A stretch of 40,389 nt of DNA from Spirochaetaceae bacterium (GTDB lineage: Bacteria; Spirochaetota; Spirochaetia; Treponematales; Breznakiellaceae), in contig JAISCO010000322.1 in the NCBI GenBank assembly GCA_031265535.1, positions 1 to 40,389 on the forward strand. Reading direction: 5' to 3'. The notes under the pieces are model-generated. The model did no database searches and was not told the DNA's origin. It worked only from the letters and a program-made list of their open reading frames with translations. A program made the translations under genes and the position numbers. Shown one piece after another: positions 1,036 to 28,231 of this stretch; positions within the stretch are counted from its first letter, which is position 1, and every line of letters starts with the position of its first letter.

Positions 1036-1746
1036 CTAATCTGGATTAACAAGCCTGATATTTGTTATAAACAAATCCGGACTGGGTTCTGTTTCACAAT
1101 ACGAGAACTGGGTAGAAGCAACATTTTGAAATGTTATGATATAAGCGCCGGTTTTTTCATCCCATACCGGAGCCTTTGCGGCCTTGTAGTTTTCACTACC
1201 CGTATCAAGTATCAGGGTTGAAGGAGGGCCAAATGACAATCCGGACCTTGCGCCCTTTCCCGCGGAACTGCTCGTCAAATATAAATCCAAATTTCCGTTT
1301 TGCGCCACAATTTTTGCTAACCATTGTTCAATGTCACTATCCCCTTTGCGAGTTTTAAGCCGGGGTTCAAAGGTGTATGTTCCATCTTTCGGCCATGCGC
1401 TCAAATTGATATATTTTGCGTTCACCCAGCCTCTGTCGCCATTGTGTTCCACCGGAAGCCAGCCGTCCCGGGATTCTCCGGTAATGGAGAGAATGTTGCC
1501 CCGCCTGATTGTCTTTACGATGCTTGAGCCGGCGGATGGCTGGGTACGGATATTCAGGCCGTTAGTGGTAACTCTGGCGGTATTCTGAGTGACGGTCTGT
1601 ATTGGCGCTGTGACAGGCACTGGGTTTTCTGCTCCGATCGCACTCTCGATAAGAGGCGCAAACAGCACTAAACTTGCGATTATCACAACGCCAACGATGA
1701 TCCACGCCGACACTTTTGCTATCGATTCCGCTTTCGCAAATGTCAT
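1036..1746 (-). CDS. membrane-anchored SH3b-domain protein
   Basis: 236 aa. N-terminal TM helix (VSAWIIVGVVIIASLVLFAPLI), then the bacterial SH3 pattern 'ARVTTNGLNIRTQPSAGSSIVKTIRRGNILSITGESRDGWLPVEHNGDRGWVNAKYI'. SD-like GGAAGG sits just upstream of the ATG. Confidence 0.7.
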   Translation of the reverse strand: MTFAKAESIAKVSAWIIVGVVIIASLVLFAPLIESAIGAENPVPVTAPIQTVTQNTARVTTNGLNIRTQPSAGSSIVKTIRRGNILSITGESRDGWLPVEHNGDRGWVNAKYINLSAWPKDGTYTFEPRLKTRKGDSDIEQWLAKIVAQNGNLDLYLTSSSAGKGARSGLSFGPPSTLILDTGSENYKAAKAPVWDEKTGAYIITFQNVASTQFSYCETEPSPDLFITNIRLVNPD

Positions 1747-1792: not shown

Positions 1793-2215
1793 TTACATCT
1801 CTTGCTCGATTTCTTCCGATTCGTCCGGTTCATTGCCGGGTTTCTCATTGGCACGGGAGTTATCCGCGTCCTGTGACTGTTTATTTTCGATGTACTTGCC
1901 GGTAACATTGACTTTTATAGGTCGGTTCAGTTCTTTTGATGCGGCGATACGATGATTCCCGTCTTTCTCCAGCACATACTGATCGCTGCAACGGGATACT
2001 TCAGGAGGCGCAGCCTCATCCGCTCGTCCGGACTGAACAAAATCCATATATTCCTCTTTTGTACGTCCGTGATGATTCCAGAATTTAGGGTCATTGGCAT
2101 TCCATTCTTTATCCTCGATAATATCATGCGGATTGACGACCGCCTCATTTTCGGGGCAGTGTTCCCATTTTATTTCGCCGGACCGGCGCTTCTGTTCAAA
2201 TTGCTCTCTGTTCAT
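1793..2215 (-). CDS. small ParB/sulfiredoxin-like protein (DGNHR motif), last gene of the long operon
   Basis: 140 aa. SD AGGAGG before the ATG, 12 nt downstream of the preceding gene. 'YVLEKDGNHRIAASKEL' resembles the ParB N-terminal-domain DGxHR motif. Acidic C-terminal tail. Confidence 0.45.
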   Translation of the reverse strand: MNREQFEQKRRSGEIKWEHCPENEAVVNPHDIIEDKEWNANDPKFWNHHGRTKEEYMDFVQSGRADEAAPPEVSRCSDQYVLEKDGNHRIAASKELNRPIKVNVTGKYIENKQSQDADNSRANEKPGNEPDESEEIEQEM

Positions 2216-2227
2216 GTAGAGCCTCCT

Positions 2228-3814
2228 TTATATTTTTAGTGATGACACGACATTTTGGAACAATGCGCTCTGCTGTAAAAACCATGTAATCGGTTCCAAC
2301 ACGCCCCAGGGCTCATACTTCTGGCCATAAGCCGCAGGATGTCCCATAGCGCTGACGGGGTAATACTGAACTTTGTTAAACTTAGCGTCTATGAGATTCA
2401 CCGCGTTGCTAAAACCGCGGTTATCCAGGAAAGCGCGGCATACTCCGTTTCTGACGAGATCCCTGCTTGTGCCGCCTTTTGTATCGGCGTACTTTTGAGC
2501 GTTGGAACTAAAAGTAGCCGCTATCTTAGGCAGACCGATTTCCTGCCTGTACAAATCGGCTTTTGTAATCAAAACGGCAATCGGCACATCGGAGGTTTTC
2601 ATGGAACGGAGTCCTTTCAAGCCCTCGAATTCACGGATAAAACCGGATACCGCATCTGATATATGCGTAGGGGAAGCGGTCGGGTCTATAATAAAAGCTA
2701 TCCCCTCGCAGTATTGAAATTGCTCCTGCTGAGTATCACTTGCAAAATCCGAAAACGCCTCTCCCGCAATATCATAGATAGTCATCTGAACGGGCGTTTT
2801 TTTCCCCTCCCTATGGATTACGCTGTACATATTTGCGTTGCGTTCCGCTGTAGTTGAGCTATTGCCGTTCTGAAACCATTCTTCCAAAACGGCAAACGCA
2901 TCTTCGGGCGCTGCGGTGATCGAAATGCCGCGCATACTTTTTAGCCGCTCCAAATACTCATGCCAAAACGCGGCAAGAAAACTAGTCTTTCCCGATTCTT
3001 TGGCGCCGACAAGCTGAATTCCGAATTGCCGCGCGTCGCTTGCCGCCAGCCCGGAAGCGCATTTTGGGCACTCAGCCTTTAACCTGGAGCGGCCATTGAA
3101 GCAGGCAGTGGGCAGGCGCTTTCCGCAAGAACATTTTTGCGTCAATATTCCGTATGGCCCGGGGGTTAGTTTCTCGTGACGCATACCGCATTTAGGGCAG
3201 ATGAAAACCGGCACTATCGAAATCCGCTTACAAGCGGGGCACCGGCTCTGAATTGCCTTGAACATCAGGATTAGTCTGTCTATCCCCCAAAAGGGCGCAA
3301 AAAAAACATAAAATACGCACATCACCGGAACGAGGAGTATAGGCATTAGCAGCGAAAAAACGGCTATCCACGCGAAACCAAATACAGAGGCGCAGAAGGC
3401 CGCAATCCCATAGAATATATAAATCCACATATCCAAAAACCATACGCCGGGCGCCTTATCGTCTCGCCAGTCTCCAAGGTCTTCCAGGCGATCTTTTTGA
3501 AAAGATAAGGCGTCTTTTACCGTAATTGATATTTGGTGGTAGCCCGGCCCAAAGAAGTAATTTTTCTTTACCCCGGAATGAGCGGACGGCGATTTGTCAA
3601 CATAGGTCGTGTAGGGGTTTATGTGTACCAGCAGCGAAGTGATAAAGCTCACAAGCGATGTATAAAAGCCATATACGACACCCGCTACCAAAGCTATAGC
3701 TAATATGGTTCCCAACAATACTCCCGCTGCCGGCAAAACAAATGGTATAATAACCTTAGTTACCAACAGGTAAAGCAGGTAGATAACTATCACGCCCGCT
3801 ATTACATAACCCAT
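2228..3814 (-). CDS. polytopic membrane protein fused to Zn-ribbons and a P-loop GTPase; third paralogue of the locus GTPase family
   Basis: 528 aa with about 5-6 N-terminal TM helices. Cys pairs CPAC...CPKC and CSC...CPKC. G1 GAKESGKT, G3 YDIAGE, G4 ITKADL. The C-terminal 'YYPVSAMG...WGVLEPITWFLQQS' parallels 'FFGVSSFG...HRVLDPILWLFKKS' of the two soluble GTPases. Confidence 0.8.
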   Translation of the reverse strand: MGYVIAGVIVIYLLYLLVTKVIIPFVLPAAGVLLGTILAIALVAGVVYGFYTSLVSFITSLLVHINPYTTYVDKSPSAHSGVKKNYFFGPGYHQISITVKDALSFQKDRLEDLGDWRDDKAPGVWFLDMWIYIFYGIAAFCASVFGFAWIAVFSLLMPILLVPVMCVFYVFFAPFWGIDRLILMFKAIQSRCPACKRISIVPVFICPKCGMRHEKLTPGPYGILTQKCSCGKRLPTACFNGRSRLKAECPKCASGLAASDARQFGIQLVGAKESGKTSFLAAFWHEYLERLKSMRGISITAAPEDAFAVLEEWFQNGNSSTTAERNANMYSVIHREGKKTPVQMTIYDIAGEAFSDFASDTQQEQFQYCEGIAFIIDPTASPTHISDAVSGFIREFEGLKGLRSMKTSDVPIAVLITKADLYRQEIGLPKIAATFSSNAQKYADTKGGTSRDLVRNGVCRAFLDNRGFSNAVNLIDAKFNKVQYYPVSAMGHPAAYGQKYEPWGVLEPITWFLQQSALFQNVVSSLKI

Positions 3815-3844
3815 ATAGAATACCTCCTTTGTAGAGTTATAGAA

Positions 3845-6373
3845 TTATTCATCATCGCGCTCGTCTCCTGAGAACATTCTGAAAAATTTGCCAAAACCGG
3901 ACCGTGGTCTCTGTGCCCGGATTTTTTCTTTTGCCTCACCCGCAACGCGCACGAAATAATCACGCGCCTCTTTCGATACCGGCATAGAGCTCAGTTTAGC
4001 CAGTGCCTTATCTCCGAGCTTAAGCTTTACGCAGACGTCAATAATGGCATCGTCGACGGCGCGGCTGCCCATCTTTGCGGCAACGGCTGTCAAGATACAC
4101 CATTCCTCGTTTCGTTTTGGCTTTGTCATGCCAAGAATGGTATCTACAAGTTCCGCCATATACGAAGGGGCGCGGGCAAACAACCGGATGATATACTCCA
4201 GTTCCTTTTGGTTCATCTGAGCCTTAAACAGTATCTTTGTTAAAGCCTGAATATAGTCCGGGTCGTCTATGGACGGAAAGCGCTGTGGTTTCAATTCATC
4301 GAAAATACTTGTGAACCGCGGTCTAGTGAGCCTGTCGTTAAGCAACTCCAGCGCATAGAGATGGGCCGAGTTTGGGCATACCGCTTCCTTGGGTTTCGTT
4401 TTCTGTATGGCGAGCGCCGCGCTCGCGCCGCCTTTTTCGGTGATAACGAGTCTGTAGTCAAGATACTGAAAAAGCTCCGCCGTATCGCGTCCGCCGGGGG
4501 GCTGAAATTTCATGACCAGATTGATGAACTGTTCGATGCCGGCGGGCCCTGACAAATCGCGGATACGGTACTTCAAAACAGATACAAAAAGATTTTCTAT
4601 CCCTTCCTGTTTAAGTTTTTTTAGGAAAGCCAGCGTGGATGCATCCGAAGCGATAATCGATTCATCGGCTTCAACAAGGAATTTAACGATGAATTCCGCA
4701 TAATCCTTTTCCGCTTTCTTTGCAATGGAAAGCAGTATATTTTGGGTGGAGATCTGCCTGTTCTGGGACAGAGCCTTAATGATCTTGCGGGCTGAGTTTG
4801 TGTCGTTCCCGCGCAGGCATAATCGCAGTCCATAGTCAACTATGTTTTTTAGGTTTTGCGCACCGACATTGCCCAGGAACGCCGCGCATTCAAGATAAAT
4901 GAGGACAAATGTAATACCCTCAGGGGCCGTAAACTGCTTAACCTGTGTACCATAATTCTGTAATGTCGATGGTTCCACAAGGAAGCCGGCCACGGCGGAC
5001 GCAAATTCGCTGCCGCGAATGTTTTCCCAAAAGCTAGAGATTCTCCGGGCATCCGGTTTGCTAAAGACTAGTCCGGCAAACTCTCCGCACACGATGCCGG
5101 TTAACTGCAGCGAAGCGTCCTTGTCTCCAAGCGTCTTTGAAACCGTTTGCAGCCATTTGATTATCCGCAGCGCACTGTTCAGGTTATCACGCAAAAAGCG
5201 CTTTAGCTCCGTCCTGATACGATTATACAGATTTTTAAGCATTTGACTGTTAAACATTCTGTATTTGTCCAGGACGGAGAGGTTTTTTTCAAGCGTCTCC
5301 GCGTTCGGAAGAGAAACGGTATCCACCAGGGCTGTAAAACACTCAAACAAGCTGTAGATGTCGTAATGCGGCGAGTCAATATCCAGCATTTGCAGGAATT
5401 CGCGGCAGAAAATCTGGTGCTTATGGTCGAAGGCGCTTATAAGACGATAGTAACGATGCGAAGTATCCGCTTCAAAAGCCGCGCGTTTTTCCTTGCCGTC
5501 AAGCAGCACGAACGGTGAATTGGCAAGGGGGCGGGCCGCCGCCGTATTTGTCCGGTCCCGTTCATCAACGCCGACAATCATGGCGCGGTAACGTTGTTTT
5601 TGCTTGGGGTCTTGAAGATTTATTTGTGTTTGATAGACGCCCGCCTGGTTAACGGTGTAGCGATTGGCGGCAGCAAACCCATCCATCCTCGTTGCAAACG
5701 GGACGGCGGACGCTATGCGGGGCGAAAAAGCGAGTTCAATCGCCGCGATCCACAATTCAACCTTTTCGGACGACTCGTCTCGAATCACAAGGAACTTTCG
5801 GCTTTCGGGAGGTTGTTCATACTGGAAAATCAAAAACGAGACAGCCGACATGAGCGCTTCTTTGCGCCCGTCCGAAATGAACGCGGTGATCTTGTCAATA
5901 TTGATTTGCCCGGCGGGGGCGTTCACTTCACGGGCAGGCAGCGGGGCGGACGGCTTCTCATAGTAGTACGCCTCGCCGCGTCCCTTCGCGTTCCAGACGG
6001 CGCTATCCCTAAACAATTCGAATGGATAGAAGCCGGAAAAGTCGCCGGCAATAATTTGGTTCACGAAATTACCGGGGCGATGGGAATAATCACCCTTGGC
6101 ATCCGGGTCATAAGGACGCGGATGAAAGTCAAGCATGAAGCTGTTACCCTTATCCGGGACAAAATACAAATATGCGTCATCCATAAATGCGGGATCGTTG
6201 TAGGGCTGTTTTTTCTGCGCGGCGTCGAACAGGAACGGAAGGTCGGCGCTGCCGTCCTCCATCAGAGCGGGCGTGCAGGAATAGACCTTAAACCCGTCCC
6301 CCGGAATGCTTCTCCCCGTCTTTAGTATGTCGATGCCGTTTCGGCAGTGAGTGTAAATCAGTTCGGAATACAT
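3845..6373 (-). CDS. 842-aa mostly helical cytoplasmic protein, possibly GAP1-like (GTPase-associated protein)
   Basis: Long ORF with SD GGAGG, 14 nt downstream of the GTPase pair. The N-terminus 'MYSELIYTHCRNGIDIL...GDGFKVYSCTP' resembles the LxYTSC...G..GFQ pattern I remember for GAP1 N-terminal domains. I saw no catalytic motif. Confidence 0.55.
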   Translation of the reverse strand: MYSELIYTHCRNGIDILKTGRSIPGDGFKVYSCTPALMEDGSADLPFLFDAAQKKQPYNDPAFMDDAYLYFVPDKGNSFMLDFHPRPYDPDAKGDYSHRPGNFVNQIIAGDFSGFYPFELFRDSAVWNAKGRGEAYYYEKPSAPLPAREVNAPAGQINIDKITAFISDGRKEALMSAVSFLIFQYEQPPESRKFLVIRDESSEKVELWIAAIELAFSPRIASAVPFATRMDGFAAANRYTVNQAGVYQTQINLQDPKQKQRYRAMIVGVDERDRTNTAAARPLANSPFVLLDGKEKRAAFEADTSHRYYRLISAFDHKHQIFCREFLQMLDIDSPHYDIYSLFECFTALVDTVSLPNAETLEKNLSVLDKYRMFNSQMLKNLYNRIRTELKRFLRDNLNSALRIIKWLQTVSKTLGDKDASLQLTGIVCGEFAGLVFSKPDARRISSFWENIRGSEFASAVAGFLVEPSTLQNYGTQVKQFTAPEGITFVLIYLECAAFLGNVGAQNLKNIVDYGLRLCLRGNDTNSARKIIKALSQNRQISTQNILLSIAKKAEKDYAEFIVKFLVEADESIIASDASTLAFLKKLKQEGIENLFVSVLKYRIRDLSGPAGIEQFINLVMKFQPPGGRDTAELFQYLDYRLVITEKGGASAALAIQKTKPKEAVCPNSAHLYALELLNDRLTRPRFTSIFDELKPQRFPSIDDPDYIQALTKILFKAQMNQKELEYIIRLFARAPSYMAELVDTILGMTKPKRNEEWCILTAVAAKMGSRAVDDAIIDVCVKLKLGDKALAKLSSMPVSKEARDYFVRVAGEAKEKIRAQRPRSGFGKFFRMFSGDERDDE

Positions 6374-6387
6374 GTTAATTCCTCCTT

Positions 6388-7488
6388 TTAATCAATGAAC
6401 TTTGACTTCTTAAAGAGCCACAGTATAGGGTCCAATACGCGGTGCGGCTGAATGTCGTTCACCAGGGTATCTCTGGTTACCGGGGGCTTGCCAAAACTTG
6501 AAACGCCGAAAAAATAAAATTCCTTAAAGTGCGACTCCAGCATAGTGATGAACGCGTCTTCCCTGATTTCACAGAGCCAGTTGCGGATTTCGCCGTCTAC
6601 CTGCTCAATTTCGGTTGTATCAAGCTTACCGTTTCGAATGTTAAGGCTTTTGCTCTTTATAAGTGCGCGAGGCCCGAATGATCTGTGATTGATGATAGTG
6701 TCGAACTTTGTCAAAACGACGGCAACGGGGATTTCCAGCAACTGAGAGGCTCTTATCCCTCTTGCCGACTTGATATACGAAACCACGTTGTTGATGACGT
6801 CGGCGGCATTTTTCGTTTTGCCTGAAAATCCAGCGAGTGAATTCGTCATGACATCCGGGTCAACGACACCGCCCCTCCGTATGCCGGACAGCACGAGAGG
6901 GTCAATGACGAGGATGATTGCTTTCGAGGCTTCTATATACCGGCATACGGTCGATGAAGTATCGAGGTTTTCGTGATCTTCACCGGCGCCGTCAAAGATG
7001 GTAAATGTATAAACAGGTGTTTCATTCTTAGTCTTTCTCGCCAAATTGCTAATTTGCCATATCTGCGGCATATTTGCTCCTGATTGCGTACCTTCAGCAC
7101 GTGTATGGTCCTCATAGATACGCCTGTAGTTTCCATCCTGGTGGTCATGCGTCTCTTTGGTCTGGTCCGCTAAAGACAGCTTTAAGCCCGGTACCCCCCT
7201 TCCTAATTCATGCAGCATGACCGTGATGTAATTCGTCTTGCCGGAGTTAGACACGCCGACAATGCTGAAAGGCAGGTTTGGCGTTTCAAGAGATGTTTTG
7301 GGAATATCATTGAGGCAGCTTGGGCATCTGCGTACTTTAGCAATACGGCCGCACTTCCGGCATTTAATCGGCTCTCTCTCAAAAGCCTTTGGGGTCACTA
7401 TTCCTCCGCATCCATCTTCAGTACAGACATAAAGCACTTTGCTTTTGTCGTACTCCCGAATGCAGAATGGGCATGTAAATTTCGCCAT
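6388..7488 (-). CDS. double Zn-ribbon + P-loop GTPase (tandem paralogue 2)
   Basis: 366 aa. Cys pairs CPFC, C..GC, CRKC, CPSC. G1 GVSNSGKT, G3 FDGAGED, G4 LTKFD. First 22 aa and last ~40 aa are identical or near-identical to the neighbour at 7506-8594. Confidence 0.85.
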   Translation of the reverse strand: MAKFTCPFCIREYDKSKVLYVCTEDGCGGIVTPKAFEREPIKCRKCGRIAKVRRCPSCLNDIPKTSLETPNLPFSIVGVSNSGKTNYITVMLHELGRGVPGLKLSLADQTKETHDHQDGNYRRIYEDHTRAEGTQSGANMPQIWQISNLARKTKNETPVYTFTIFDGAGEDHENLDTSSTVCRYIEASKAIILVIDPLVLSGIRRGGVVDPDVMTNSLAGFSGKTKNAADVINNVVSYIKSARGIRASQLLEIPVAVVLTKFDTIINHRSFGPRALIKSKSLNIRNGKLDTTEIEQVDGEIRNWLCEIREDAFITMLESHFKEFYFFGVSSFGKPPVTRDTLVNDIQPHRVLDPILWLFKKSKFID

Positions 7489-7505
7489 TTTTTTCTCCTA
7501 TATTT

Positions 7506-8594
7506 TTAATCAATGAACTTTGACTTCTTAAAGAGCCATAGTATCGGGTCCAATACGCGGTGCGGACGAATGTCGTTCACCAGGGTATCTTTAGTTACCG
7601 GGGGCTTGCCAAAACTTGAAACGGCAAAGAAATAAAATTCTTTAAAATGTGATTCCAGTACGTTGATGAACGCGCTTTCCCCAATTTCACGGAGCCAGGT
7701 GCGAATTTCGCCGTCTACCTGCTCAATTTCGGTTGTATCCAGCTTGCCATTTCGAATAACACGGCTTTCTCTCTTTATAGTGGCCTGAGGCCCGAACGAC
7801 TTGTGATTGATGATAGTGTCGAACTTTGTCAAAACGACAGCAACGGGAATTTCCAGCAACTGAGAGACTCTTATCTCTCTCTCCGACTTGATATACGAAA
7901 CCACGTTGTTGATGACATCAGCGGTATTTTTCACTCCGTTTAAGCATCCGCTGCTTGAGTTCGCCATGACATCCGGGTCGACTACACCGCCCCTCCGTAT
8001 GCCGGACAGCACGAGAGGGTCAATGACTAGGATGATTGCTTTCGAAGCTTTGATATACCGACATTCAGTCGATGAAGTATCAAGGTTTTCATGATCCACG
8101 CCGGCGCCGTCAAAGATGGTAACTGTATAAGCAGATGCCATGCCTCTATGCTTTTTATTTAGATTCGTGACGCACCATATCTGCGGCATATTTGCTCCTG
8201 ATTGTGTACTTTCAGCACGGGTATGTTTCTCATAGATACGCTCGTAGTTTTCCCTCTGATGTTTATGTGTCTCAATGGTCAGGGGCTTCAAAAACAGGCC
8301 CAAGTCCGATGCCCTCCCCAATTCATGCAGCATAGCCGTGATATAACTCGTCTTGCCGGAGTTATCCACACCAACAATGCTGAAAGGCAGGTTGGGCGTT
8401 TCAAGAACCGCTTGGGGAACATAATTGCAGCAGAATGGGCATTCGCTAACAGCAACACGGCCGCACTTCCGGCACTTAATCGGCTCTCTCTCAAAAATTT
8501 TTGGAGTCGCTGTTTCTTTGCATTCAAGGCAGACATAAAGCACTTTGCTTTTGTCGTACTCCCGAATGCAGAATGGACATGTAAATTTCGCCAT
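7506..8594 (-). CDS. double Zn-ribbon + P-loop GTPase (tandem paralogue 1)
   Basis: 362 aa. Cys pairs CPFC, CLEC, CRKC, CPFCC. G1 GVDNSGKT, G3 FDGAGVD, G4 LTKFD. SD AGGAGA. Starts 9 nt after the stop of the upstream gene. Confidence 0.85.
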   Translation of the reverse strand: MAKFTCPFCIREYDKSKVLYVCLECKETATPKIFEREPIKCRKCGRVAVSECPFCCNYVPQAVLETPNLPFSIVGVDNSGKTSYITAMLHELGRASDLGLFLKPLTIETHKHQRENYERIYEKHTRAESTQSGANMPQIWCVTNLNKKHRGMASAYTVTIFDGAGVDHENLDTSSTECRYIKASKAIILVIDPLVLSGIRRGGVVDPDVMANSSSGCLNGVKNTADVINNVVSYIKSEREIRVSQLLEIPVAVVLTKFDTIINHKSFGPQATIKRESRVIRNGKLDTTEIEQVDGEIRTWLREIGESAFINVLESHFKEFYFFAVSSFGKPPVTKDTLVNDIRPHRVLDPILWLFKKSKFID

Positions 8595-8603
8595 TTTTCT
8601 CTC

Positions 8604-11600
8604 CTATATCTTTCCTGTAAATCCTTTTGCCCAGCGAAGGATAAATTCCTCGCCGGGAACGGGAGCGGTTTCAAACAAAAAGAATTTTGTGTTTTTTAAC
8701 TGCCTGAGGGATAAATCCGTCCGCACATCATAGCTGCTGTTGCAGGTTTTTCGCGGCGTTTCCAGTTCGCCGCCCTGTATAGCCAGCACTTGTACCGCTT
8801 TAGGGTCATTATGGGATATCAAATGCTGGTCGTCCGCGCAAGCGCATAACACGAACCGGGGCGCTTGCGAGAAAGGACGGTTTCCGGCGGCCTCTATCGA
8901 CAACTTTATATCGCCCAAAAGGCTTTTACTGAGCTTCCAGAATACGTCTACCCTTAATGGACGGTCAAAGCGGCATGGTTTCGGGTCGGATACTATCTCT
9001 TTGCCGCCAAAATTGTAAATTGTGAAAAGGGATACATAATATGACGCTTCCGCGCGGGCGGTTTCCCTGTACAGTATCTCGCCGTTTTCCCGGTACGCCG
9101 CCAGCCCAATCCGGTGAATATCCTGCGCCGTGCCAATATCCTGCGCGGTCGGCCAGTGGTTTTGGGAAGCGCTGGTCCTGACCGAATAATAGAAACCGGT
9201 AACATTCGGAGGGATGACGCCGATTTTAAGGTGTAGTTCTATTGTGTATGCGGCTTCCCGCAAACCCGCGATAGCATCCTCGTGTAAGCTGGATGACGCC
9301 TTGTCAATCAAACAGGGTGAGTATGTATTGACCTCCTGACTGTTCTTGCTCGGCAGCCAGTTGCCGCCCGAATAGGCCAGAACCGTGATAGTATGGAAGT
9401 TGTTCGCGGGCAATTCAATGTCGCAGCTTCCGGCATCGGATTTCAATTCACGGACTTGCTTTCCGCCAACCAGTATACGCAGGTCAATTCCGCGCCGGTT
9501 TATATCCCATGAAACATTGTAGGTGTTTTCCTTAAGTTTTTTTACGGCAATTGCAAACGATTCGATTTTGAGCATCGGGGTAATAACAATATCTACCCCA
9601 CGACTGTGGGGTAGATTGGCATAATTGGCGCAGAGTTTATATGCATACGCAAGGCCGTACTGAACATTCGTATCCTCAAAGCTGCCGTGCGCCTCGCTGC
9701 TTAGCAGGGTTTCCTTCCCGCCCTGAGTCCGGCGGATAGTAACGCCCGCGCTGTTTTTCGGCGCGTTCCATGTAAGCCGAACAGTCATGTTCACCTGCTC
9801 GGCGCGCGCGTCGGTAACATCAGCAAGAAGGACATCGGTTTTTCCCGCGGCGGAAGAGAATACCCCGTACCTGACGGCAAAAACAGCATAGCTGTACCAC
9901 TGACCCGGCAAAATAGTTTTGTCGCGGTATGTGGTATCTTTGGTATTGTCAAGCAGAATTTCTCCGTCCATTTTGCTGACCGGTATTTCTTTACCCTGTT
10001 TCCTGACAAGCCGGCAGCTTACCCCCTGCTCCGGCGATGGCGTCCAGCCGATATTCGCGGCGCCGGCTAAACTGTCCATGCCGACTGAAAGGTTTTTGCA
10101 GCTTTCCGGCGGCGTTGATTGCAGAAAACTGACGGCGGGTTCAAAATCAACGCAATCCCGCAAAATCGCAACGCACTCGTCCGCCTTACCGGAGGATGAG
10201 AGTTTTCCGACATTCGCAAACCTTGTACGGGCCTGTGAAAGAGCGGTATTAATCTGCGCTTCAAAGACGGATACATTGAGCCCGGGGAAGCTGCCGGTAA
10301 TGACGGCAAGCGTTTCGGATGCTTTTTGGAACATTTTATCGGCAAGCAGCTTTCGCAGGTCGTTTACCGGCTTTTCATACCTCTTTTCTTCCGCGGAAAT
10401 ACGCGCCGCCAGTTCATCGGTCCTGCTCTTTTCTCCCGGATCGGCAGCCTGCGCCTGGTACAAGGAACTGCGCGCCAATTCAAAATCGCTCTTGCGAAGG
10501 GCCTGTTCCGCGGCGGCAAAGTATTTTGCAAACATTGCGGCGCTCGCGAACACAAACCCGCACTCAGGGCATCTATCCAGGGAAACAAGCGCCATCTTTT
10601 GGCACTTCCCGCACCGCTTATAGAGCGGTTTGCCGCAATTCGAACATTTATTTATGTTTTGCGCTTCCGCCGCGTCTGTAAATTCAATCGGGGCCTGACA
10701 GTGCGGGCATTTGACATGAAACATGGGCGTTACAGGAATATAAGGGTCATCCAGCAATTTGAGTTCATTGTTGTAAACCGCGACGGCTATTGTATTATCA
10801 CCGAATATATCAAATATTTGTTTGACGTATTTTTCAGCATATCTGGGATTTAACAGGTGTGACTTGTCAAATCCCTTCAGTGAATCAATAAGTTCCGCTA
10901 AATCCGTAGATTTATATTTTAGTAAAATCCCGTATGCGCTGCGTTTTTTTTCAGAGTCGAAGACATTGAATCTGCCATAAGTAGCCAGAGAACCGCACAA
11001 GTGCCTCCATTCATTCGCTTTGGGGTCGCCAAAATCCGCCGCGTATTTTTCACACAGGCTTTTTAACTCGGTGGTGGATTTATTACGATATTCATACACA
11101 TTTTCCGGCTCATCAGCCATGTATGCGAGAAAAGCATATAAATCCGTTACTTGTGATGTATCAGCAACATTCTTTTTATAATTACGCAGGTTTTCAAGAT
11201 CCTTGATGTGGTTTTTCCAATTCGTTGGAAGCAATGATTCTATTATTTTATAATAATTGAACTCTAACATCTCAAGTCCAAGCGCGGAAAAAACCTCTTC
11301 TATATGCGACTCGGATAACTTTGTTATTTGCTTATAGGTTCTTACCGTACCCTTTGTTATCCTGCTAGTCCCGCCTGCTTTTAAGGCCGCCGCTGTTTTT
11401 CTGAATTTTTTAATCTCCCTATCGGTATGAGCATTGGCCAGCCTTTCCAATTCATCAAAAAGCGGTTCTTTATTGGCGTCAAGCACAGAAGCAAGGCATT
11501 TCTTCTGCTCAGAAAATAAGACCTCCTCTTTATCACCCCTCGGCCCATTATTGAAAGATCCATCTAATTCCTTTTTTGCCTTTTCGATAGCGTCGAGAAT

Positions 11601-11669
11601 CTTCTGCGCCGCCTTTTCCGGCGGGTCAAAGGGCAAGTGTGTCAAATCAAAGAAATCATAGTCAGTCAT
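8604..11669 (-). CDS. shared N-terminal module (~316 aa) + double Zn-ribbon + TPR-like hairpin + helical region + Fn3/Ig-like beta domains
   Basis: 1021 aa. N-terminus MTDYDFFDLTHLPFDPPEKAAQK. 'KCPHCQ...CSNCG...CGKCQ...CPECG' gives four CxxC pairs. Fn3-like stretches include 'VRLTWNAPKNSAGVTIRR...YAYKLCA' and 'YNVSWDINRRG...ITVLAYSG'. Confidence 0.85.
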   Translation of the reverse strand: MTDYDFFDLTHLPFDPPEKAAQKILDAIEKAKKELDGSFNNGPRGDKEEVLFSEQKKCLASVLDANKEPLFDELERLANAHTDREIKKFRKTAAALKAGGTSRITKGTVRTYKQITKLSESHIEEVFSALGLEMLEFNYYKIIESLLPTNWKNHIKDLENLRNYKKNVADTSQVTDLYAFLAYMADEPENVYEYRNKSTTELKSLCEKYAADFGDPKANEWRHLCGSLATYGRFNVFDSEKKRSAYGILLKYKSTDLAELIDSLKGFDKSHLLNPRYAEKYVKQIFDIFGDNTIAVAVYNNELKLLDDPYIPVTPMFHVKCPHCQAPIEFTDAAEAQNINKCSNCGKPLYKRCGKCQKMALVSLDRCPECGFVFASAAMFAKYFAAAEQALRKSDFELARSSLYQAQAADPGEKSRTDELAARISAEEKRYEKPVNDLRKLLADKMFQKASETLAVITGSFPGLNVSVFEAQINTALSQARTRFANVGKLSSSGKADECVAILRDCVDFEPAVSFLQSTPPESCKNLSVGMDSLAGAANIGWTPSPEQGVSCRLVRKQGKEIPVSKMDGEILLDNTKDTTYRDKTILPGQWYSYAVFAVRYGVFSSAAGKTDVLLADVTDARAEQVNMTVRLTWNAPKNSAGVTIRRTQGGKETLLSSEAHGSFEDTNVQYGLAYAYKLCANYANLPHSRGVDIVITPMLKIESFAIAVKKLKENTYNVSWDINRRGIDLRILVGGKQVRELKSDAGSCDIELPANNFHTITVLAYSGGNWLPSKNSQEVNTYSPCLIDKASSSLHEDAIAGLREAAYTIELHLKIGVIPPNVTGFYYSVRTSASQNHWPTAQDIGTAQDIHRIGLAAYRENGEILYRETARAEASYYVSLFTIYNFGGKEIVSDPKPCRFDRPLRVDVFWKLSKSLLGDIKLSIEAAGNRPFSQAPRFVLCACADDQHLISHNDPKAVQVLAIQGGELETPRKTCNSSYDVRTDLSLRQLKNTKFFLFETAPVPGEEFILRWAKGFTGKI

Positions 11670-11713: not shown

Positions 11714-12829
11714 TCACTCCACGCCCCATATCCTGACGGTGTTATCCAATGACCCGGAGGCAATCCTGCGCCCATCGGGACTCCACGACACGGAAGCTAC
11801 AAAGCTGGTATGCCCCGTGAGCGCAAACAGTTCGCTCCCGCTCTCCGCGTCCCAGATCTTTATGGTTCTATCAGATGACCTGGAAGCTATCCTGCGCCCA
11901 TCGGGGCTCCATGCCACGGAAGAGTTTCCCTTATTGAGGGTTAGCAGTTCACGCCCATTCTCTGCGTCCCATATTTTGAAGGGGTCATTCTTATTATAAT
12001 ATGAACCGGAAGCTATTCTGCGCCCATCGGGGCTCCACGCCACGTAATCTACATAGCTGTTATGCCCCGTGAGTGTGCGCAGTTCACGCCAATTCTCCGC
12101 GTCCCATATCCTGACGGTGTTATCTCCTGAGCCGGAAGCTATCCTGCGCCCATCGGGGCTCCACCCCACGGAATATACCTTGTCGGTATGCCCCTTGAGG
12201 GTTAGCAGTTCACGCCAATTCTCCGCGTCCCATATTTTGATGGTGTTGTCCTCTGACCCGGAAGCTATCCTGCGCCCATCGGGACTCCACGCCACGGAAT
12301 CTACCTCCTTGAGTGTGCGCAGTTCACGCCCGCTTTCCGCATCCCATATCTTGACGGTCTTATCACGTGACTTGGAAGCTATCCTGCGCCCATCGGGGCT
12401 CCATGTCATGTAATATACAAAGCTGTGATGCCCCTTGAGTGTGCGTAGTTTACGCCCGCTCTCCGCGTCCCATATCTTGATGGGTTCTTTATACCTTGAC
12501 CCGGCGGAGGCAATCCTGCGCCTATCGGGAGTCCACGCCACGGAATCTACCTCCTTGGGGGTGCGCAGTTCACGCCCGCTCTCCGCGTCCCATATTTTGA
12601 TAGTCATATATGACTCGGAAGCTATCCTGCGCCCATCGGGGCTCCACACCACGTGATATACAAATCTGTTATGCCCCGTGAGTGTGCGCAGTTCACGCCC
12701 GCTCTCTGCATCCCATATCCTGACGGTGTTATCTCCTGAGCCGGAAGCTATCCTGCGCCCATCGGGGCTCCATGACATGGAACATACCTTGTCGGTATGC
12801 CCCTTGAGTACGCACAGTTCACGCCACCC
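11714..12829 (-). repeat. intragenic tandem array of ~126-bp WD40-coding repeats (9 units)
   Basis: The string 'gcgcccatcggggctccacgccacgga...cagttcacgcc(c/a)...tccgcgtcccatat' recurs with ~126-bp period. The same units recur in 14237-14866. Confidence 0.9.
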
Positions 12830-14140
12830 CTCCTTCCGCTTCCTGCTGGTTTCATCCTCCTCCCGCTTCCGCCTCTCTTTTGCGGAAATACGCGCCGCCA
12901 GTTCATCGGTTTTGCTCTTTTTGCCCGGATCGGCAGCCTGCGCATCGGACAAATAAAGGCGTGCCAATTCAAAATGCCCTTCGAGAAATGCCCGTTCTGC
13001 GGTAGCGAAGTATTTTTCAAACGCTACGGCGCTCTCCTCCCGCTTGGCTTCATCCTCCTCCCGCTTCCGTCTGGCATCCTCCTCCCGCTTCTGTCTGGGT
13101 TCCTCCTCGAAGATCGGCTCGGGTATACGAAGCTCCGGTTCCGGCATTGTGTGGCTCGGCTCCTTTTTTGCCGGGATATAAAACTCGTCTTTAAACCCTG
13201 CTTCCTTGTTATAGATAGCGAGCGAGACCTCATAATCCCCAAAGACGGCCGCGATTTCTTTTATACATCCCTCGGCAAATTTGGGTTCCAACAAATGGTG
13301 CATGGAAAAGGATTTCATGGTAGAGAACAACTCCGTCAGAGACGGAGTTTTATATTTCAGGTATGCTTCATAGGCTTGGCGGTGATCTTCCGAGTCGAAT
13401 ACATAAAGCTTGCCGTACGTAGCCAGTGAAGAGCAGAGATGTCCAAATTTATCGGTTCGAGCAGAGTACTTTACGGCAAAACCATCAAACAGGCTTTTCA
13501 GTGCGGATCTTGATTTACTTCTATACACCGCCGCGTTTTCCGGTTCGCCGGCCATGTATGCGGCAAGGTCATACAAATTTTTCACCTGCTTAAGGGCAGC
13601 CTCATTCACGTTTGATTTTTGGTCTTTAAAATTCTGAAAAGCCTCGAGAGGTTTCGCATACGCTTTATCCGCGTTGGTTGGAAACCTGGGATATTTTTTA
13701 ATCAGATCATCGGTGGAGCTTACTGTAAATCCGGCGGCACGGAAAACATCTTCCACATTTTTCTTTGATAATCCCCTCTCTTTTTGATGACCACGAATAG
13801 CCCTATCGGTAATTACATGGGAACCTGACTGTTTGAGCCGCGAAACGAACGCCCTTAGTTTCTCGATTTCTTTTTTTACTTTATCTTTTGCCAGTTCATC
13901 ATAAGCGGGAGTGAGTTTATCATCATTACTAATGATAGAGTCTTTTGATCCCTTTTTTATGATTTTGTCCAAAAAAGACTGTTTTCCCGTGATTTTATCG
14001 TACTCCCATTGCGGCATATCATTGGTAGGATGACCAATCTCTTTTTTTGCCTTTTCGATAGCGCCGGTAACCTTCTGCGCCGCCTTTTCCGGCGGGTCAA
14101 AAGGCAGGCGTGTCAAATCAAAGAAATCATAGTCAGTCAT
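11714..14140 (-). CDS. shared N-terminal module + charged linker + TPR-like hairpin + 9 WD40 repeats
   Basis: 808 aa. N-terminus MTDYDFFDLTRLPFDPPEKAAQK. Nine units of the form GHxxxVxxVxWSPDGRRIASGSxDxT(V/I)(R/K)IWDAE(S/N)GRELRTL(K/T). Confidence 0.9.
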   Translation of the reverse strand: MTDYDFFDLTRLPFDPPEKAAQKVTGAIEKAKKEIGHPTNDMPQWEYDKITGKQSFLDKIIKKGSKDSIISNDDKLTPAYDELAKDKVKKEIEKLRAFVSRLKQSGSHVITDRAIRGHQKERGLSKKNVEDVFRAAGFTVSSTDDLIKKYPRFPTNADKAYAKPLEAFQNFKDQKSNVNEAALKQVKNLYDLAAYMAGEPENAAVYRSKSRSALKSLFDGFAVKYSARTDKFGHLCSSLATYGKLYVFDSEDHRQAYEAYLKYKTPSLTELFSTMKSFSMHHLLEPKFAEGCIKEIAAVFGDYEVSLAIYNKEAGFKDEFYIPAKKEPSHTMPEPELRIPEPIFEEEPRQKREEDARRKREEDEAKREESAVAFEKYFATAERAFLEGHFELARLYLSDAQAADPGKKSKTDELAARISAKERRKREEDETSRKRKEGWRELCVLKGHTDKVCSMSWSPDGRRIASGSGDNTVRIWDAESGRELRTLTGHNRFVYHVVWSPDGRRIASESYMTIKIWDAESGRELRTPKEVDSVAWTPDRRRIASAGSRYKEPIKIWDAESGRKLRTLKGHHSFVYYMTWSPDGRRIASKSRDKTVKIWDAESGRELRTLKEVDSVAWSPDGRRIASGSEDNTIKIWDAENWRELLTLKGHTDKVYSVGWSPDGRRIASGSGDNTVRIWDAENWRELRTLTGHNSYVDYVAWSPDGRRIASGSYYNKNDPFKIWDAENGRELLTLNKGNSSVAWSPDGRRIASRSSDRTIKIWDAESGSELFALTGHTSFVASVSWSPDGRRIASGSLDNTVRIWGVE

Positions 14141-14236: not shown

Positions 14237-14866
14237 TTACTCCGCGCCCCATATCCTGACGGTTTTATCATTTGACCCGGAAGCTATCCTGCGCCCATCG
14301 GGGCTCCACGCCACGGACAGTACATCGTAGGTATGCCCCTTGAGCGTGTGCAGTTCACGCCCGCTCTCCGCGTCCCATATTTTGATGGTTTTATCCGATG
14401 ACCCGGAAGCTATCCTGCACCCGTCGGGGCTCCACGCCACGGAGTATATGTAGTCGGAATCCTTGAGCGTGTGTAGTTCACGCCCACTCTCCACATCCCA
14501 TATCCTGACGGTCATATCATTTGACCCGGAAGCTATCCTGCGCCCATCGGGGCTCCACGCCACGGACAGTACATCGTAGGTATGCCCCTTGAGCGTGTGC
14601 AGTTCACGCCCGCTCTCCGCGTCCCATATCCTGACGGTTTCATCCCGTGACCCGGAAGCTATCCTGTGCCCGTCGGGACTCCACGCCACGGATTCTACAA
14701 TGTGATGCCCCGTGAGCGTGTGCAGTTCACGCCCGTTCTCCGCATCCCATATCCTGACGGTGTCATCCCCTGCCCCTGAGGCAATCTTGAGCCCATCGGG
14801 GCTCCACGCCACGGAATATACATAGAAGAAATGCCCCTTGAGCGCACGCAGTTCACGCCAAAGCTC
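14237..14866 (-). repeat. intragenic tandem array of ~126-bp WD40-coding repeats (5 units)
   Basis: Same repeat family as 11714-12829. Units 3 and 5 are almost identical at the DNA level. Confidence 0.9.
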
Positions 14867-15844
14867 TTCCTTTTTCGCCGGGATATAAAGCTCACCTTGT
14901 AATCCCGCTTCCTTGTTATAGATATTTACCGATACCATATAATAGCAGCCAAAGATGGCCGATATTTTATTTATAAACGCTTCGGCCAATCCGGGGTCTA
15001 ACAAATCCTGCTTGTTGGAGGAAAAGGACTTCATCTGAGCGAATAACTGTGTCAGCAACGGATTTTTATATTTCAGGTATGCTTCATAGGCTTGGCGGTG
15101 ATCTTCTGTGTCGAATATATATGTCTTGCCGTAAGTAGCCAGAGAAGAGCATAGATGCCCTGCCGGATCATTGTCATGCTGCCCGGATAACTTACCGGCG
15201 AATCCGTCAAATAGGGCTTTTAGTTCGGGAGTTGTTTTCTTTTTATACTCCGCGGTTTTTTCCGGCTCACCGGCCATACACGCGGCAAAGGCATATAAAT
15301 CTTCCGCCGGCGTAAAGTCAGTCCATTTTTTATTCTCAGGTTTTCGCAAAGCCTCAAGTTCCTTATACGCTATATCCGCGTTTTTTGGAAACTTTGGGTA
15401 GTGCTTGTTGAACAGTTCATCTCTGGGGATTTCTGTAAATCCGGCATTACGAAAAACCTCTTTCACATGGCCTTCGGACAGCAATGTCCTTTTGCTATGG
15501 CGGCGAATCGTACCATCAGTAAACTTAGGGGAAGGCAGCAGCAAAACGACCTCCCTTAGTTTCTCGATTTCTTTTTTTACTTTATCTTCCGCCAGCTTGC
15601 TATAAGCGGGAGTGAGTTTATCATCATTACTAATGATAGAGTCTTTTGATCCCTTTTTTATAATGGTGTCCAAAAAAGACTGTTTTCCCGTGATTTCATC
15701 GCGTTCCAATTGCTGCGTGGCAGAGGAAAGAGCAGCAACAAGTTCTTTTTTTGACTTTTCGACAGCGCCGGTAACCTTCTGCGCCGCCTTTTCCGGCGGG
15801 TCAAAGGGCAAGTGTGTCAAATCAAAGAAATCATAGTCAGTCAT
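14237..15844 (-). CDS. shared N-terminal module + 5 WD40 repeats
   Basis: 535 aa. The N-terminal ~322 aa are almost identical to those of the next gene upstream (15874-17973). They are followed by five near-identical WD40 units. Confidence 0.9.
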   Translation of the reverse strand: MTDYDFFDLTHLPFDPPEKAAQKVTGAVEKSKKELVAALSSATQQLERDEITGKQSFLDTIIKKGSKDSIISNDDKLTPAYSKLAEDKVKKEIEKLREVVLLLPSPKFTDGTIRRHSKRTLLSEGHVKEVFRNAGFTEIPRDELFNKHYPKFPKNADIAYKELEALRKPENKKWTDFTPAEDLYAFAACMAGEPEKTAEYKKKTTPELKALFDGFAGKLSGQHDNDPAGHLCSSLATYGKTYIFDTEDHRQAYEAYLKYKNPLLTQLFAQMKSFSSNKQDLLDPGLAEAFINKISAIFGCYYMVSVNIYNKEAGLQGELYIPAKKEELWRELRALKGHFFYVYSVAWSPDGLKIASGAGDDTVRIWDAENGRELHTLTGHHIVESVAWSPDGHRIASGSRDETVRIWDAESGRELHTLKGHTYDVLSVAWSPDGRRIASGSNDMTVRIWDVESGRELHTLKDSDYIYSVAWSPDGCRIASGSSDKTIKIWDAESGRELHTLKGHTYDVLSVAWSPDGRRIASGSNDKTVRIWGAE

Positions 15845-15873: not shown

Positions 15874-17973
15874 TTATGTGTCGTCTGCGGTTAGATACAT
15901 CCATCTACTAACAAAGTAAACAAAGATACCAATGCTCCAACCAATCAAGGCATCAATGATAGCACCGCCGATACCACCGAAGAAGAAACCCCTGGATCCG
16001 CGAAGAGAGCCGATAAAGCTGCTTATAACCATACAAGCGCAGAACCCTAATTCGCCACCAAAGAGTTCCATTGCGAAATTATTAATGATGTAGTAGATGA
16101 GAACAGAAATAGCGCCGATGATGGTACCGATAATTGCGCAGACGACAACACCATTGCTGCCTTGAAAGATGGCACTACCGATGGCATCGACAATAATACT
16201 GGCGATGGCAATGACAAGTATTATTTTCTTTTTTCGTTCTCTTTTGAATTCCTCACTCAGCTTCCACCAGACTTCCTCCTCCTGTTCCCGCCTCTCTTCT
16301 TCTTCCCGCTTCCGTCTGGGTTCCTCCTCTTGTTTCCGTCTCTCTTCCGCAGAAATACGCGCCGCCAGTTCATCGGTTTTGCTCTTTTCACCCGGATCGG
16401 CGTCCAGTGCTTCGAACAAATAATTGCGTGCCAATTCAAAATACTCTTCGAGAAGTGCCTGTTCTGCGGCAGCAAAGTATTTTGCAAACGCTGCGGCGCT
16501 CTCTTCCTGCTTCCGTCTAGCGTCCTCTTCCTGCTTACGTATAGCGTCCTCTTCCTGCTTACGTCTAGCGTCCTCTTCCTGTTTCCGCCTCTCTTCTGCG
16601 GAAATACGCGCCGCCAGTTCATCGATCTTGATCTTTTTGCCCGGATCGGCAGCCTGCGCATCGGACAAAGAACGGCGCGCCAATTCAAAATCGCTCTTGC
16701 TAAGGGCCTGTTCCGCGGCAGCGAAGTATTTTTCAAACGTTGCGGCGCTCTCCTCTCGCTTTCTGTCATCCTCCCGCTTCCGTCTCTCTTCCGCAGAAAT
16801 ACGCGCTGCCAGTTCATCAGTCTTGATCTTTTTGCCCGGATCGGCAGCCTGCGCCTGGGACAAATAAATGCGTGCCAATTCAAAATCGCTCTTGCGAAGG
16901 GCCTGTTCCGCGGCAGCGAAGTATTTTTCAAACGCGGCGGTACTCTCCTCCTGCTTCCGTCTCGTCTCTTCTTCCCGCTTCCGCCTCTCCTCCTCCTCAA
17001 ATCTCGCCGGGATATAAAGCTCACCTTGTAATCCCGCTTCCTTGTTATAGATATTTACCGATACCATATAATCGCAGCCAAAGATGGCCGAGATTTTATT
17101 TATATACACTTCGGCCAATTCGCGGTCTAACAAATCCTGCTTGCTGGAGGAATAGGATTTCATCTGAGCGAATAACTCTGTCAGCGACGGATTTTTATAT
17201 TTCAGGTGTGCTTCATAGCCCCGGCGGTGATCTTCTGTGTCGAATACATAGGTCTTGCCGTAAGTAGCCAGAGAAGAGCAGAGATGCCCTGCCGGATCCT
17301 TATCATGCGGCCCGGATAACTTACCGGCGAATCCGTCAAACAGGCTTTTTAGTGCGGATGTTGATTTACCGCGATACTCCGCGGCTTTTTCCGGCTCACC
17401 GGCCATGCACGCGGCAAAGGCATATAAATCTTCCGCCGCCGTAAAGTCAGTCCATTTTTTATTTTCAGGATTCCGTAACGCCTCAAGTTCCTTATACGCT
17501 ATATCCGCGTTTTTTGGAAACTTTGGGTAGTGCTTGTTGAACAGTTCATCTCTGGGGATTTCTGTAAATCCGGCATTGCGAAAAACCTCTTTTACATGGC
17601 CTTCGGACAGCATTGTCCTTTTGCTATGGCGGCGAATCGTACCATCAGTAAACTTATGGGAAGGCAGCAGCAAAACGACCGCCCTTAGTTTCTCGATTTC
17701 TTTTTTTACTTTATCTTCCGCCAGCTTGCTATAAGCGGGAGTGAGTTTATCATCATTACCAATGATAGAGTCTTTTGATCCCTTTTTTATGATGGTATCC
17801 AAAAAAGACTGTTTTCCCGTGATTTCATCATGCTCCAATTGCTGCGTGGCAGAGGAAAGAGCAGCAACAAGTTCTTTTTTTGACTTTTCGATAGCGCCGG
17901 TAACCTTCTGCGCCGCCTGTTCCGGCGGGTCAAAAGGCAAGTGTGTCAAATCAAAGAAATCGTAGTCAGTCAT
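15874..17973 (-). CDS. shared N-terminal module + 3 TPR-like hairpin cassettes in E/R/K-rich linkers + C-terminal glycine-zipper multi-TM domain
   Basis: 699 aa. Three copies of 'FEKYFAAAEQAL.KSDFELAR..L..AQAADPGKK.K.DELAARISAEERRK.EE'. The last ~119 aa are hydrophobic and Gly-rich (IIGTIIGAISVLIYY...FFFGGIGGAIIDALIGWSIGIFVYF). Confidence 0.9.
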   Translation of the reverse strand: MTDYDFFDLTHLPFDPPEQAAQKVTGAIEKSKKELVAALSSATQQLEHDEITGKQSFLDTIIKKGSKDSIIGNDDKLTPAYSKLAEDKVKKEIEKLRAVVLLLPSHKFTDGTIRRHSKRTMLSEGHVKEVFRNAGFTEIPRDELFNKHYPKFPKNADIAYKELEALRNPENKKWTDFTAAEDLYAFAACMAGEPEKAAEYRGKSTSALKSLFDGFAGKLSGPHDKDPAGHLCSSLATYGKTYVFDTEDHRRGYEAHLKYKNPSLTELFAQMKSYSSSKQDLLDRELAEVYINKISAIFGCDYMVSVNIYNKEAGLQGELYIPARFEEEERRKREEETRRKQEESTAAFEKYFAAAEQALRKSDFELARIYLSQAQAADPGKKIKTDELAARISAEERRKREDDRKREESAATFEKYFAAAEQALSKSDFELARRSLSDAQAADPGKKIKIDELAARISAEERRKQEEDARRKQEEDAIRKQEEDARRKQEESAAAFAKYFAAAEQALLEEYFELARNYLFEALDADPGEKSKTDELAARISAEERRKQEEEPRRKREEEERREQEEEVWWKLSEEFKRERKKKIILVIAIASIIVDAIGSAIFQGSNGVVVCAIIGTIIGAISVLIYYIINNFAMELFGGELGFCACMVISSFIGSLRGSRGFFFGGIGGAIIDALIGWSIGIFVYFVSRWMYLTADDT
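16349..16945 (-). repeat. three ~150-bp copies of a TPR-like-hairpin coding cassette
   Basis: Copies lie at about 16349-16500, 16598-16749 and 16792-16945. Single copies of the same cassette lie at about 10390-10550 and 12880-13033 in two other genes. Confidence 0.85.
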
Positions 17974-25235: not shown

Positions 25236-25264
25236 AACAAATGCCTCCATAAAAATATTTCCCA

Positions 25265-28224: not shown

Positions 28225-28231
28225 AAATTAT

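Follow-up and report, generated by a model that had tools for sequence, protein, structure and literature searches.

GTPase genes and their large partner

The window examined here is the whole of a 40,389-nt stretch of DNA from a Spirochaetaceae bacterium (contig JAISCO010000322.1), and our subject is a set of three paralogous GTPase genes within it, together with the gene of a large partner protein that they flank. All of these open reading frames exist as stated in the first-pass annotation of this DNA, and they lie on the minus strand; the genes are tightly packed and a ribosome-binding site (RBS) precedes each. Two of the GTPases are soluble, each with two CxxC...CxxC Zn ribbons, and are encoded in tandem: copy A (7506-8594, 362 aa), the upstream and diverging duplicate, which is preceded by its own RBS, ATATAGGAGAG, and copy B (6388-7488, 366 aa), which resembles the orthologues. 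The two are 78% identical in protein and 82.6% in DNA, confirming the tandem duplication that had been proposed. Their termini are indeed identical, but since these are kept throughout the family, for example in the orthologue of a related locus, L003, they are not special to the pair. The divergence between A and B peaks at codons 91-180, the interval between the G1 and G3 motifs, where it had been noted before, as well as at codons 211-240; in the Zn ribbons, where it had also been noted, it is only moderate.

The third GTPase (2228-3814, minus strand, 528 aa) is membrane-anchored. Four hydrophobic helices were found at its N-terminus (residues 5-23, 29-47, 129-147 and 150-168), rather than the five to six transmembrane (TM) helices first described, and its orthologues also have four. 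Behind them lie Zn ribbons with their Cys pairs and a G domain whose G3 motif reads DIAGE. Copy B aligns to residues 204-520 of this protein with 23% identity (E 1e-15, far beyond chance), and the two Zn ribbons are covered by this match, as are G1, G3, G4 and the C-terminal motif VS(A/S)xG...VL(D/E)PIxW, which bears out the earlier claim that 2228-3814 carries the same GTPase. The TRAFAC-type motifs G1 (GxxxxGKT), G3 (DxxG) and G4 (T/NKxD) are found in all three proteins, at 8349-8372, 8097-8111 and 7818-7829 in copy A, at 7234-7257, 6979-6993 and 6700-6711 in copy B, and at 2984-3007, 2759-2773 and 2555-2566 in the membrane copy. Among homologues, the family-wide forms are GVSNSGKT, DGAGE and LTKFD.

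We then examined the family to which these proteins belong. In Pfam, the three copies matched two GTPase families and no other, DO-GTPase2 (PF19993) and DO-GTPase1 (PF19975), both with a gathering score of 27 bits as the cutoff. The membrane copy exceeded it for both (33.0 and 32.2 bits, respectively), copy B passed it for DO-GTPase2 (30.1 bits; DO-GTPase1, 23.8 bits) and copy A came just below it (DO-GTPase2, 26.9 bits, E 4.7e-6; DO-GTPase1, 17.6 bits); precomputed labels for the two families are present on many orthologues. These matches, together with a partner related to GAP1 (below), bear out the link to 'double-GTPase' families made in the first-pass annotation. Conflict systems of DO-GTPases and GAP1 proteins have been predicted computationally (Kaur, Burroughs, Iyer and Aravind, eLife 2020, PMC7159879).

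An AlphaFold2 model of copy B has a TRAFAC fold (mean predicted local distance difference test score 81, predicted template modelling score 0.84), and a Foldseek search with it found no close relative among solved structures, the matches being generic TRAFAC proteins (eEFSec, G-alpha, Arl, MglA, atlastin and YcjX) at 8-16% identity. This generic resemblance is in keeping with a TRAFAC family of its own and rules out Era, Der and dynamin, the housekeeping families that had been named for a refuting test by profile search; neither Pfam nor Foldseek matched them. As there was no match to such a family in NCBIfam either, and as the genes sit in a mobile accessory cassette (below), membership of these GTPases in a housekeeping family is exceedingly improbable. 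Scans of the GTPases, the large partner and the small protein p140 (below) with NCBIfam and PADLOC gave nothing useful.

The large partner (3845-6373, minus strand) is a protein of 842 aa that begins with an alpha/beta region and continues as an alpha-solenoid of ~520 aa. Weak matches to GAP1-N2 were found in 14 of 17 close homologues (best E 2.7e-4), and GAP1-M was matched by seven of the 17. A profile of the family retrieves relatives of ~900 aa at E 1e-45 to 1e-77, and 27 of 35 of these more distant relatives match GAP1-M (best E 8.4e-7), one of them, P0381, at 28.2 bits with a cutoff of 24. The link of the window protein to GAP1-M is thus one of transitive homology, through its relatives. 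From the matches in close homologues, the relatives retrieved by the profile and the GAP1-M matches in these relatives, we conclude that the 842-aa protein is a putative, divergent GAP1. Its AlphaFold2 model is poor before residue 160 and shows a confident alpha-solenoid from ~300 to 820, for which Foldseek returned generic alpha-solenoid proteins (TM-scores of at most 0.27) and nothing specific on function. In a Clostridia metagenome-assembled genome (L002/L007, 10001-12523), a full-length gene of this type was seen with neither the GTPase nor other cassette genes nearby.

A cassette conserved among phyla

The proteins of the window were used to annotate 19 genome and 30 metagenome loci, to which further loci were added from look-ups. 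One cassette recurs in ~40 related loci, which represent at least six phyla, in the shared order TrwB/HerA-like ATPase, p461 (a protein with no function assigned), GrpE-like protein, Hsp70, Hsp70-vWA, a fibronectin type III (FNIII) protein, one soluble GTPase, GAP1-like protein and TM-GTPase. The carriers include Spirochaetaceae (Spirochaetota), Holophagales, Balneolaceae, Clostridia/Oscillospiraceae, Cryptobacterium, Gardnerella, Planctomycetaceae and Synergistota, with actinomycetotal and planctomycetotal loci among them (Actinomycetota, Planctomycetota). The FNIII protein is always upstream of the soluble GTPase, the TM-GTPase comes after GAP1 in nearly all loci, and a second, more distant TM-GTPase often follows the first. 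Genes for integrases, for a polyvalent ArdA protein or for a primase of the D5 type adjoin the cassette in some loci, and we take it to be carried on a horizontally mobile operon of ~26 kb. A tblastn search with GTPase B against plasmid and phage collections gave no match in either.

Nearly all related cassettes, those of the close relatives L003 and L054 included, encode a single soluble GTPase and a membrane GTPase, and tandem soluble copies occur in two of the ~30 cassettes that cover the GTPase region. Hence, the conserved pair is the soluble GTPase with the membrane GTPase, and not A with B, contrary to the earlier proposal that the two soluble GTPases form a switch that relays to the third.

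A variant of the core was seen in Treponema sp. R8-4-B8 (L001, 1-14983), where the soluble GTPase, the GAP1-like protein and a TM-GTPase of 600 aa are accompanied by protein kinases in place of the Hsp70 arm, one kinase being fused to an FNIII-type C-terminal region. The part of Kaur et al. (PMC7159879) that deals with the kinase theme describes it as restricted to actinobacteria.

We next looked at the slot after the membrane GTPase. In 13 loci, the TM-GTPase is directly followed by Imm33 and a GH-E nuclease, and in L056 the slot holds SMI1_KNR4 and Tox-GHH. These pairs of toxin and immunity protein (L003 7732-8404, L017 14090-14841, L052 16080-16726 and L056 10397-11312) are strongly conserved between phyla (E 1e-40 to 1e-58) and are the best evidence for regarding the cassette as a conflict system. 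They correspond to known polymorphic-toxin modules (GH-E PF14410 with Imm33 PF09951; Tox-GHH PF15636 with SMI1_KNR4 PF09346). In the window, the slot is occupied by p140 (1793-2215, minus strand), a small protein with no fold assigned. A DNA comparison of window positions 1793-2249 with L003 7709-8404 showed that the body of p140 replaces the Imm33/GH-E segment, the replaced part being bounded by the end of the TM-GTPase gene and an acidic tail. The last ~15 codons, which encode this tail (...GNEPDESEEIEQEM), are still homologous, as is the downstream SH3 gene. Thus, p140 shares with the GH-E gene of the relatives its acidic C-terminal tail (...EEIEQEM) and nothing else. GH-E proteins of numerous phyla share a tail with EQEM at its end, possibly as a signal for docking. 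The p140 family has ten proteins only, with a Pfam domain in none, and L054 has the same p140-type arrangement. Two candidate identities for p140 were rejected: a ParB/Srx-like protein, suggested by a 'DGNHR' motif, for which matches in a PDB search were at chance level, and a divergent GH-E nuclease, for which hhalign paired the acidic tail alone (5.9% probability).

The gene that follows (1036-1746, minus strand) encodes a protein with one TM segment (around residues 5-40) and a bacterial SH3 domain (Pfam SH3_3, 52.9 bits). In the TM-GTPases of L008 and L020, a C-terminal TM helix and an SH3-like region are fused to the protein, and the SH3 gene of the window looks like this C-terminal module of the membrane GTPase in the form of a separate gene.

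Upstream of copy A, and likewise on the minus strand, lies the remainder of the cassette. Its first component (8604-11669, 1021 aa) consists of a 310-aa N-domain, a double Zn ribbon (DZR, 21.4 bits) and beta-rich FNIII-like repeats; fn3 was matched in five of 11 orthologues (best E 1.8e-5), and matches to fibronectin and titin in the PDB are weak. Further upstream are three Hsp70 paralogues: an Hsp70-vWA protein (17989-20172; Pfam HSP70 342 bits, VWA 61.6 bits), in which the HSP70 match is limited to the nucleotide-binding part and a vWA domain is added, an Hsp70 (20190-21869; HSP70 297 bits) and a third Hsp70 with a C-terminal N-domain, recognised by alignment (21888-24437; HSP70 297 bits). 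They are preceded by a GrpE-like protein (24456-25307; Pfam GrpE 23.6 bits, with a cutoff of 25.8), whose counterpart in the same slot of L052 bears a precomputed PF01025 label, by p461 (25265-26650) and by the TrwB/TraD/HerA-like P-loop ATPase (26654-27964; TrwB_AAD_bind 142 bits), with which p461 is paired at the head of the cassette. The ATPase and p461 (~450 aa) lie directly before the GrpE-like gene in ~20 metagenome loci and in L052.

The ~310-aa domain (start DYDFFDLTHLPFDPPEKAAQK) occurs five times in the window, at 10680-11669, 13100-14140, 14830-15844, 16930-17973 and 21888-22922, all on the minus strand. Apart from the copy on the FNIII protein and that at the C-terminus of the third Hsp70, it is found in three extra genes that are absent from this position in related cassettes and that were characterised by alignment of the N-domain, Pfam and TM segments: in two of them (11714-14140 and 14237-15844) it is fused to WD40 repeats and in the third (15874-17973) to coiled repeats and TM helices. 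The presence of one domain on a core component as well as on variable modules looks like the logic of an adaptor domain. It has no Pfam or PDB match. The start DYDFFDL... looked like helix I of a J-domain; DnaJ was rejected as an identity, given that neither Pfam (11 orthologues) nor a PDB profile search lent support and that there is no HPD motif.

Three further features of this region were observed. The WD40 proteins at 11714-14140 and 14237-15844 have near-alike repeats (IWDAESGRELRTL.GH...V.WSPDGRRIASGS), some of them apparently shortened, which are reminiscent of rapidly evolving WD40 sensor arrays. A motif of ~50 aa (FEKYFAAAEQALRKSDFELAR...AQAADPGKK.KTDELAARISAEERRK) follows the Zn ribbons of the FNIII protein (8604-11669) as a single copy; the 808-aa WD40 protein (11714-14140) also has one copy, and the 699-aa TM protein (15874-17973) has four. 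Beyond the cassette, positions 28000-33000 have a G+C content of 0.35-0.42, as against ~0.49 in the cassette, and encode small TM, lipoprotein-like and TPR proteins; this may be a separately acquired segment.

With its Hsp70s, GrpE-like protein, membrane GTPase and peptidoglycan-type SH3 protein in one operon, and a coupling-type ATPase like TrwB/VirD4 at the head, the cassette could also be a membrane-associated chaperone, transport or envelope machine, the assembly of which the GTPases control, and have no role in immunity or conflict. The fixed gene order and the highly conserved GTPase would suit such a machine, as would the lack of PADLOC matches for the GTPases and GAP1. It would not be expected to show the patchy spread over phyla, the integrase, ArdA and primase genes beside some copies, the toxin and immunity pairs embedded in the cassette, the swappable slot after the TM-GTPase or the variable, sensor-like WD40 and FNIII modules. 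On balance, we regard this explanation as distinctly unlikely.

The duplicated soluble GTPase

Copies A and B both align with the single soluble GTPase gene of L003, which is 83% identical to the window in DNA over the core, and L054 is likewise single-copy. Copy A is a recent addition, a tandem duplicate specific to this lineage as judged from these alignments, and because of it the window holds three GTPases.

Copy B (DGAGE) and the membrane copy (DIAGE) have the Walker-B glutamate that is conserved in the family; in copy A, alignment of the homologues places a valine there (Val166, codon GTG at 8097-8099, minus strand). The form DGAGE is found in 119 of 120 homologues and DGAGV in copy A alone. 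The codon differs at two nucleotides from the GAA of copy B (6979-6981), so that a single base error is an unlikely cause. The first-pass annotation had noted intact GxxxxGKT, DxxG and TKxD motifs in the three proteins and had read all of them as catalytically competent; the motifs are intact, and it is for copy A, with its unique DGAGV, that the second part could not be upheld.

The family glutamate follows directly upon the G3 glycine, which we take to be the position of Gln61 in Ras (Gln227 in G-alpha-s). Substitutions of Ras Gln61 can block GTP hydrolysis, and the HAS-GTPases, which have a hydrophobic residue at this position, can still hydrolyse GTP. The valine of copy A resembles both the hydrolysis-blocking changes and the hydrophobic residue of the HAS-GTPases. 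Unlike these proteins, DO-GTPases are not members of the Ras superfamily at the level of sequence, and the role of their glutamate is assigned by position. The loss of the glutamate suggests impaired hydrolysis, and GTP hydrolysis by copy A is most likely slow or absent.

Copy A has diverged at other positions as well. Of the columns that 90% or more of the orthologues conserve, it deviates at 18 and copy B at four, and the deviating columns of copy A include, besides the Walker-B glutamate, the invariant F158, G240 and G324. This places it among the three most deviant of 121 sequences, for which the median is three deviations. Measured against L003, copy A has a nonsynonymous divergence (dN) of 0.147 and copy B one of 0.121, and between A and B the ratio of nonsynonymous to synonymous divergence (dN/dS) is 0.42 at a dS of 0.35. 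One explanation is that copy A is redundant, evolves under relaxed selection and is heading for loss, with no function of its own. The 18 deviations, with the Walker-B glutamate, F158, G240 and G324 among them, are in keeping with such decay, and dN/dS is raised (0.37-0.42, compared to 0.23-0.30 in orthologue pairs of similar dS). However, it is still well under 1, the frame of 362 codons is still open at a dS of ~0.35, eight of eight Zn-ribbon cysteines as well as G1 and G4 are retained, and some substitutions run parallel to those in an independent duplicate, in L036. We consider decay to be a somewhat unlikely explanation.

In L036 (18278-20446), the soluble GTPase has been duplicated in tandem a second time. 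The upstream copies of L036 and of the window are each closest to their own neighbouring copy, which indicates that the duplications are separate events. Again, it is the upstream copy that is divergent (17 deviations vs. three), and seven deviating columns are common to it and copy A, where ~2 are expected (hypergeometric p ~7e-4); three of the changes in these columns are identical (A to V, N to S and Q to L). The upstream copy of L036 retains DGAGE. Because the same asymmetric divergence and shared positions recur in L036, and because the glutamate is lost in copy A, the upstream duplicate might repeatably evolve, not by decay, to a 'pseudo-GTPase' which is locked in the GTP state or hydrolyses slowly, and by which the threshold of the DO-GTPase/GAP1 switch is set. 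In this lineage, the duplication would then accompany an expansion of the cassette into a multi-input system, with a third Hsp70 that bears the 310-aa adaptor domain, three adaptor-domain WD40/TM proteins and a swapped effector slot. We offer this as a speculative proposal, to which we assign a low probability.

The recurrence in L036 also bears on the earlier model of a soluble A-B heterodimer that acts as a switch and passes its signal to the third, membrane-tethered GTPase. Neither gene is disrupted, an RBS precedes each of them and dN/dS is below 1, the seven shared columns hint at a repeatable specialisation of the second copy, and Kaur et al., in their discussion of DO-GTPases, argue that these act as dimers (PMC7159879). 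Yet tandem soluble copies are rare, L003 and L054 have one copy each, and copy A is without the conserved glutamate. As nearly all cassettes encode just one soluble GTPase, the mechanism conserved in the system cannot be an A-B pair; as an addition in this lineage, an A-B switch may exist. Overall, the model is unlikely.

Relation to DO-GTPase/GAP1 systems and proposed mechanism

As they are presented in the sections of Kaur et al. (PMC7159879) that concern them, GAP1-N2 systems comprise a GTPase that bears two Zn ribbons at its N-terminus, a second copy with about four N-terminal TM helices, one C-terminal TM helix and an SH3 domain beyond it, and an FNIII-repeat protein; in 14% of cases, they include HSP70, GrpE and a second HSP70, which is without the peptide-binding domain. 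A conserved Walker B glutamate is given there as defining the DO-GTPase family, and fusion of the FNIII protein to DnaJ is called typical, with TPR repeats as the alternative. The locus resembles such a system with the HSP70/GrpE theme (PF19993, PF19975, PF20013 and PF20014) in its soluble GTPase with two N-terminal Zn ribbons, its second GTPase with four N-terminal TM helices, the GAP1 gene directly after the GTPase, the FNIII component, the set of HSP70, GrpE and second HSP70 and, in relatives, the SH3 domain on the membrane copy. Hence, the locus is probably the core of a DO-GTPase system of the GAP1-N2 type with the HSP70/GrpE theme, a predicted conflict system, in which copy A would be a modulatory duplicate. 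Systems of this kind are already known from the 2020 prediction and the Pfam families, and the window is an additional case with variant features. It differs in having three GTPases, the soluble one being duplicated, with no Walker-B glutamate in copy A, in a GAP1 too divergent for a direct Pfam match, in an FNIII protein that carries the 310-aa domain where DnaJ or TPR would be expected, and in its spirochaete-like host, a phylum outside those listed for GAP1-N2 in the sections concerned. Kaur et al. mention neither the TrwB-like ATPase and p461 nor the toxin and immunity pairs of the relatives, such as Imm33/GH-E, in their main text.

Several results weigh against this assignment. The 842-aa protein of the window has no Pfam match (for GAP1-N2, none at E <= 5), the GAP1-N2 matches in its relatives are all below threshold, and no family named GAP1-C appeared in any Pfam scan. 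Neither DnaJ nor TPR was found on the FNIII protein in 11 orthologues (E <= 1) or in the PDB profile search. The toxin and immunity pair of the relatives is absent from the window, neither the GTPases nor GAP1 are represented by a PADLOC model, and the identity of copy B to homologues in various phyla, 60-83%, is unusually high for a protein in an arms race. The glutamate-less copy A need not be inactive, by analogy with the HAS-GTPases. In the literature searched, the 2020 computational paper stood alone, with no experimental work on DO-GTPase or GAP1, and each step of the mechanism proposed below goes beyond what was observed.

Observed directly were which genes the cassette holds, in which order and how well conserved, as well as the motifs, the membrane anchor and the fact that copy A has lost the glutamate; from these we infer the following scheme. 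The soluble GTPase (copy B in the window) and the membrane GTPase would form the 'double' pair, bridged by GAP1, whose N-terminal alpha/beta domains may contact the G domains while the alpha-solenoid serves as a scaffold. GTP-dependent pairing would recruit the complex to the membrane and thus act as the switch, and the glutamate after the G3 glycine would drive hydrolysis and reset it. Sensing and remodelling could be the task of an arm made up of the FNIII protein and the Hsp70 pair, and the likely output of the system in the relatives is a nuclease toxin together with its immunity protein. Copy A would be a modulatory or GTP-locked partner and not half of the core switch. The proposed pairing of a soluble GTPase with a membrane-associated paralogue as a functional step has an analogy in SRP54 (Ffh) and FtsY/SR-alpha, which differ in that they are of the SIMIBI and not the TRAFAC class, have no Zn ribbons and have no third partner like GAP1.

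DO-GTPase/GAP1 systems are widespread and are predicted to be regulated immune or conflict systems. In summary, our analysis reveals no new kind of system; it fixes the HSP70-type cassette as ~nine conserved genes, from the TrwB-like ATPase through the membrane GTPase, and with the conserved GTPase pair and the cassette now defined, the system becomes easier to reconstitute. The change from glutamate to valine in copy A is a natural variant and, as such, a ready-made probe for the role of the signature glutamate of the family.

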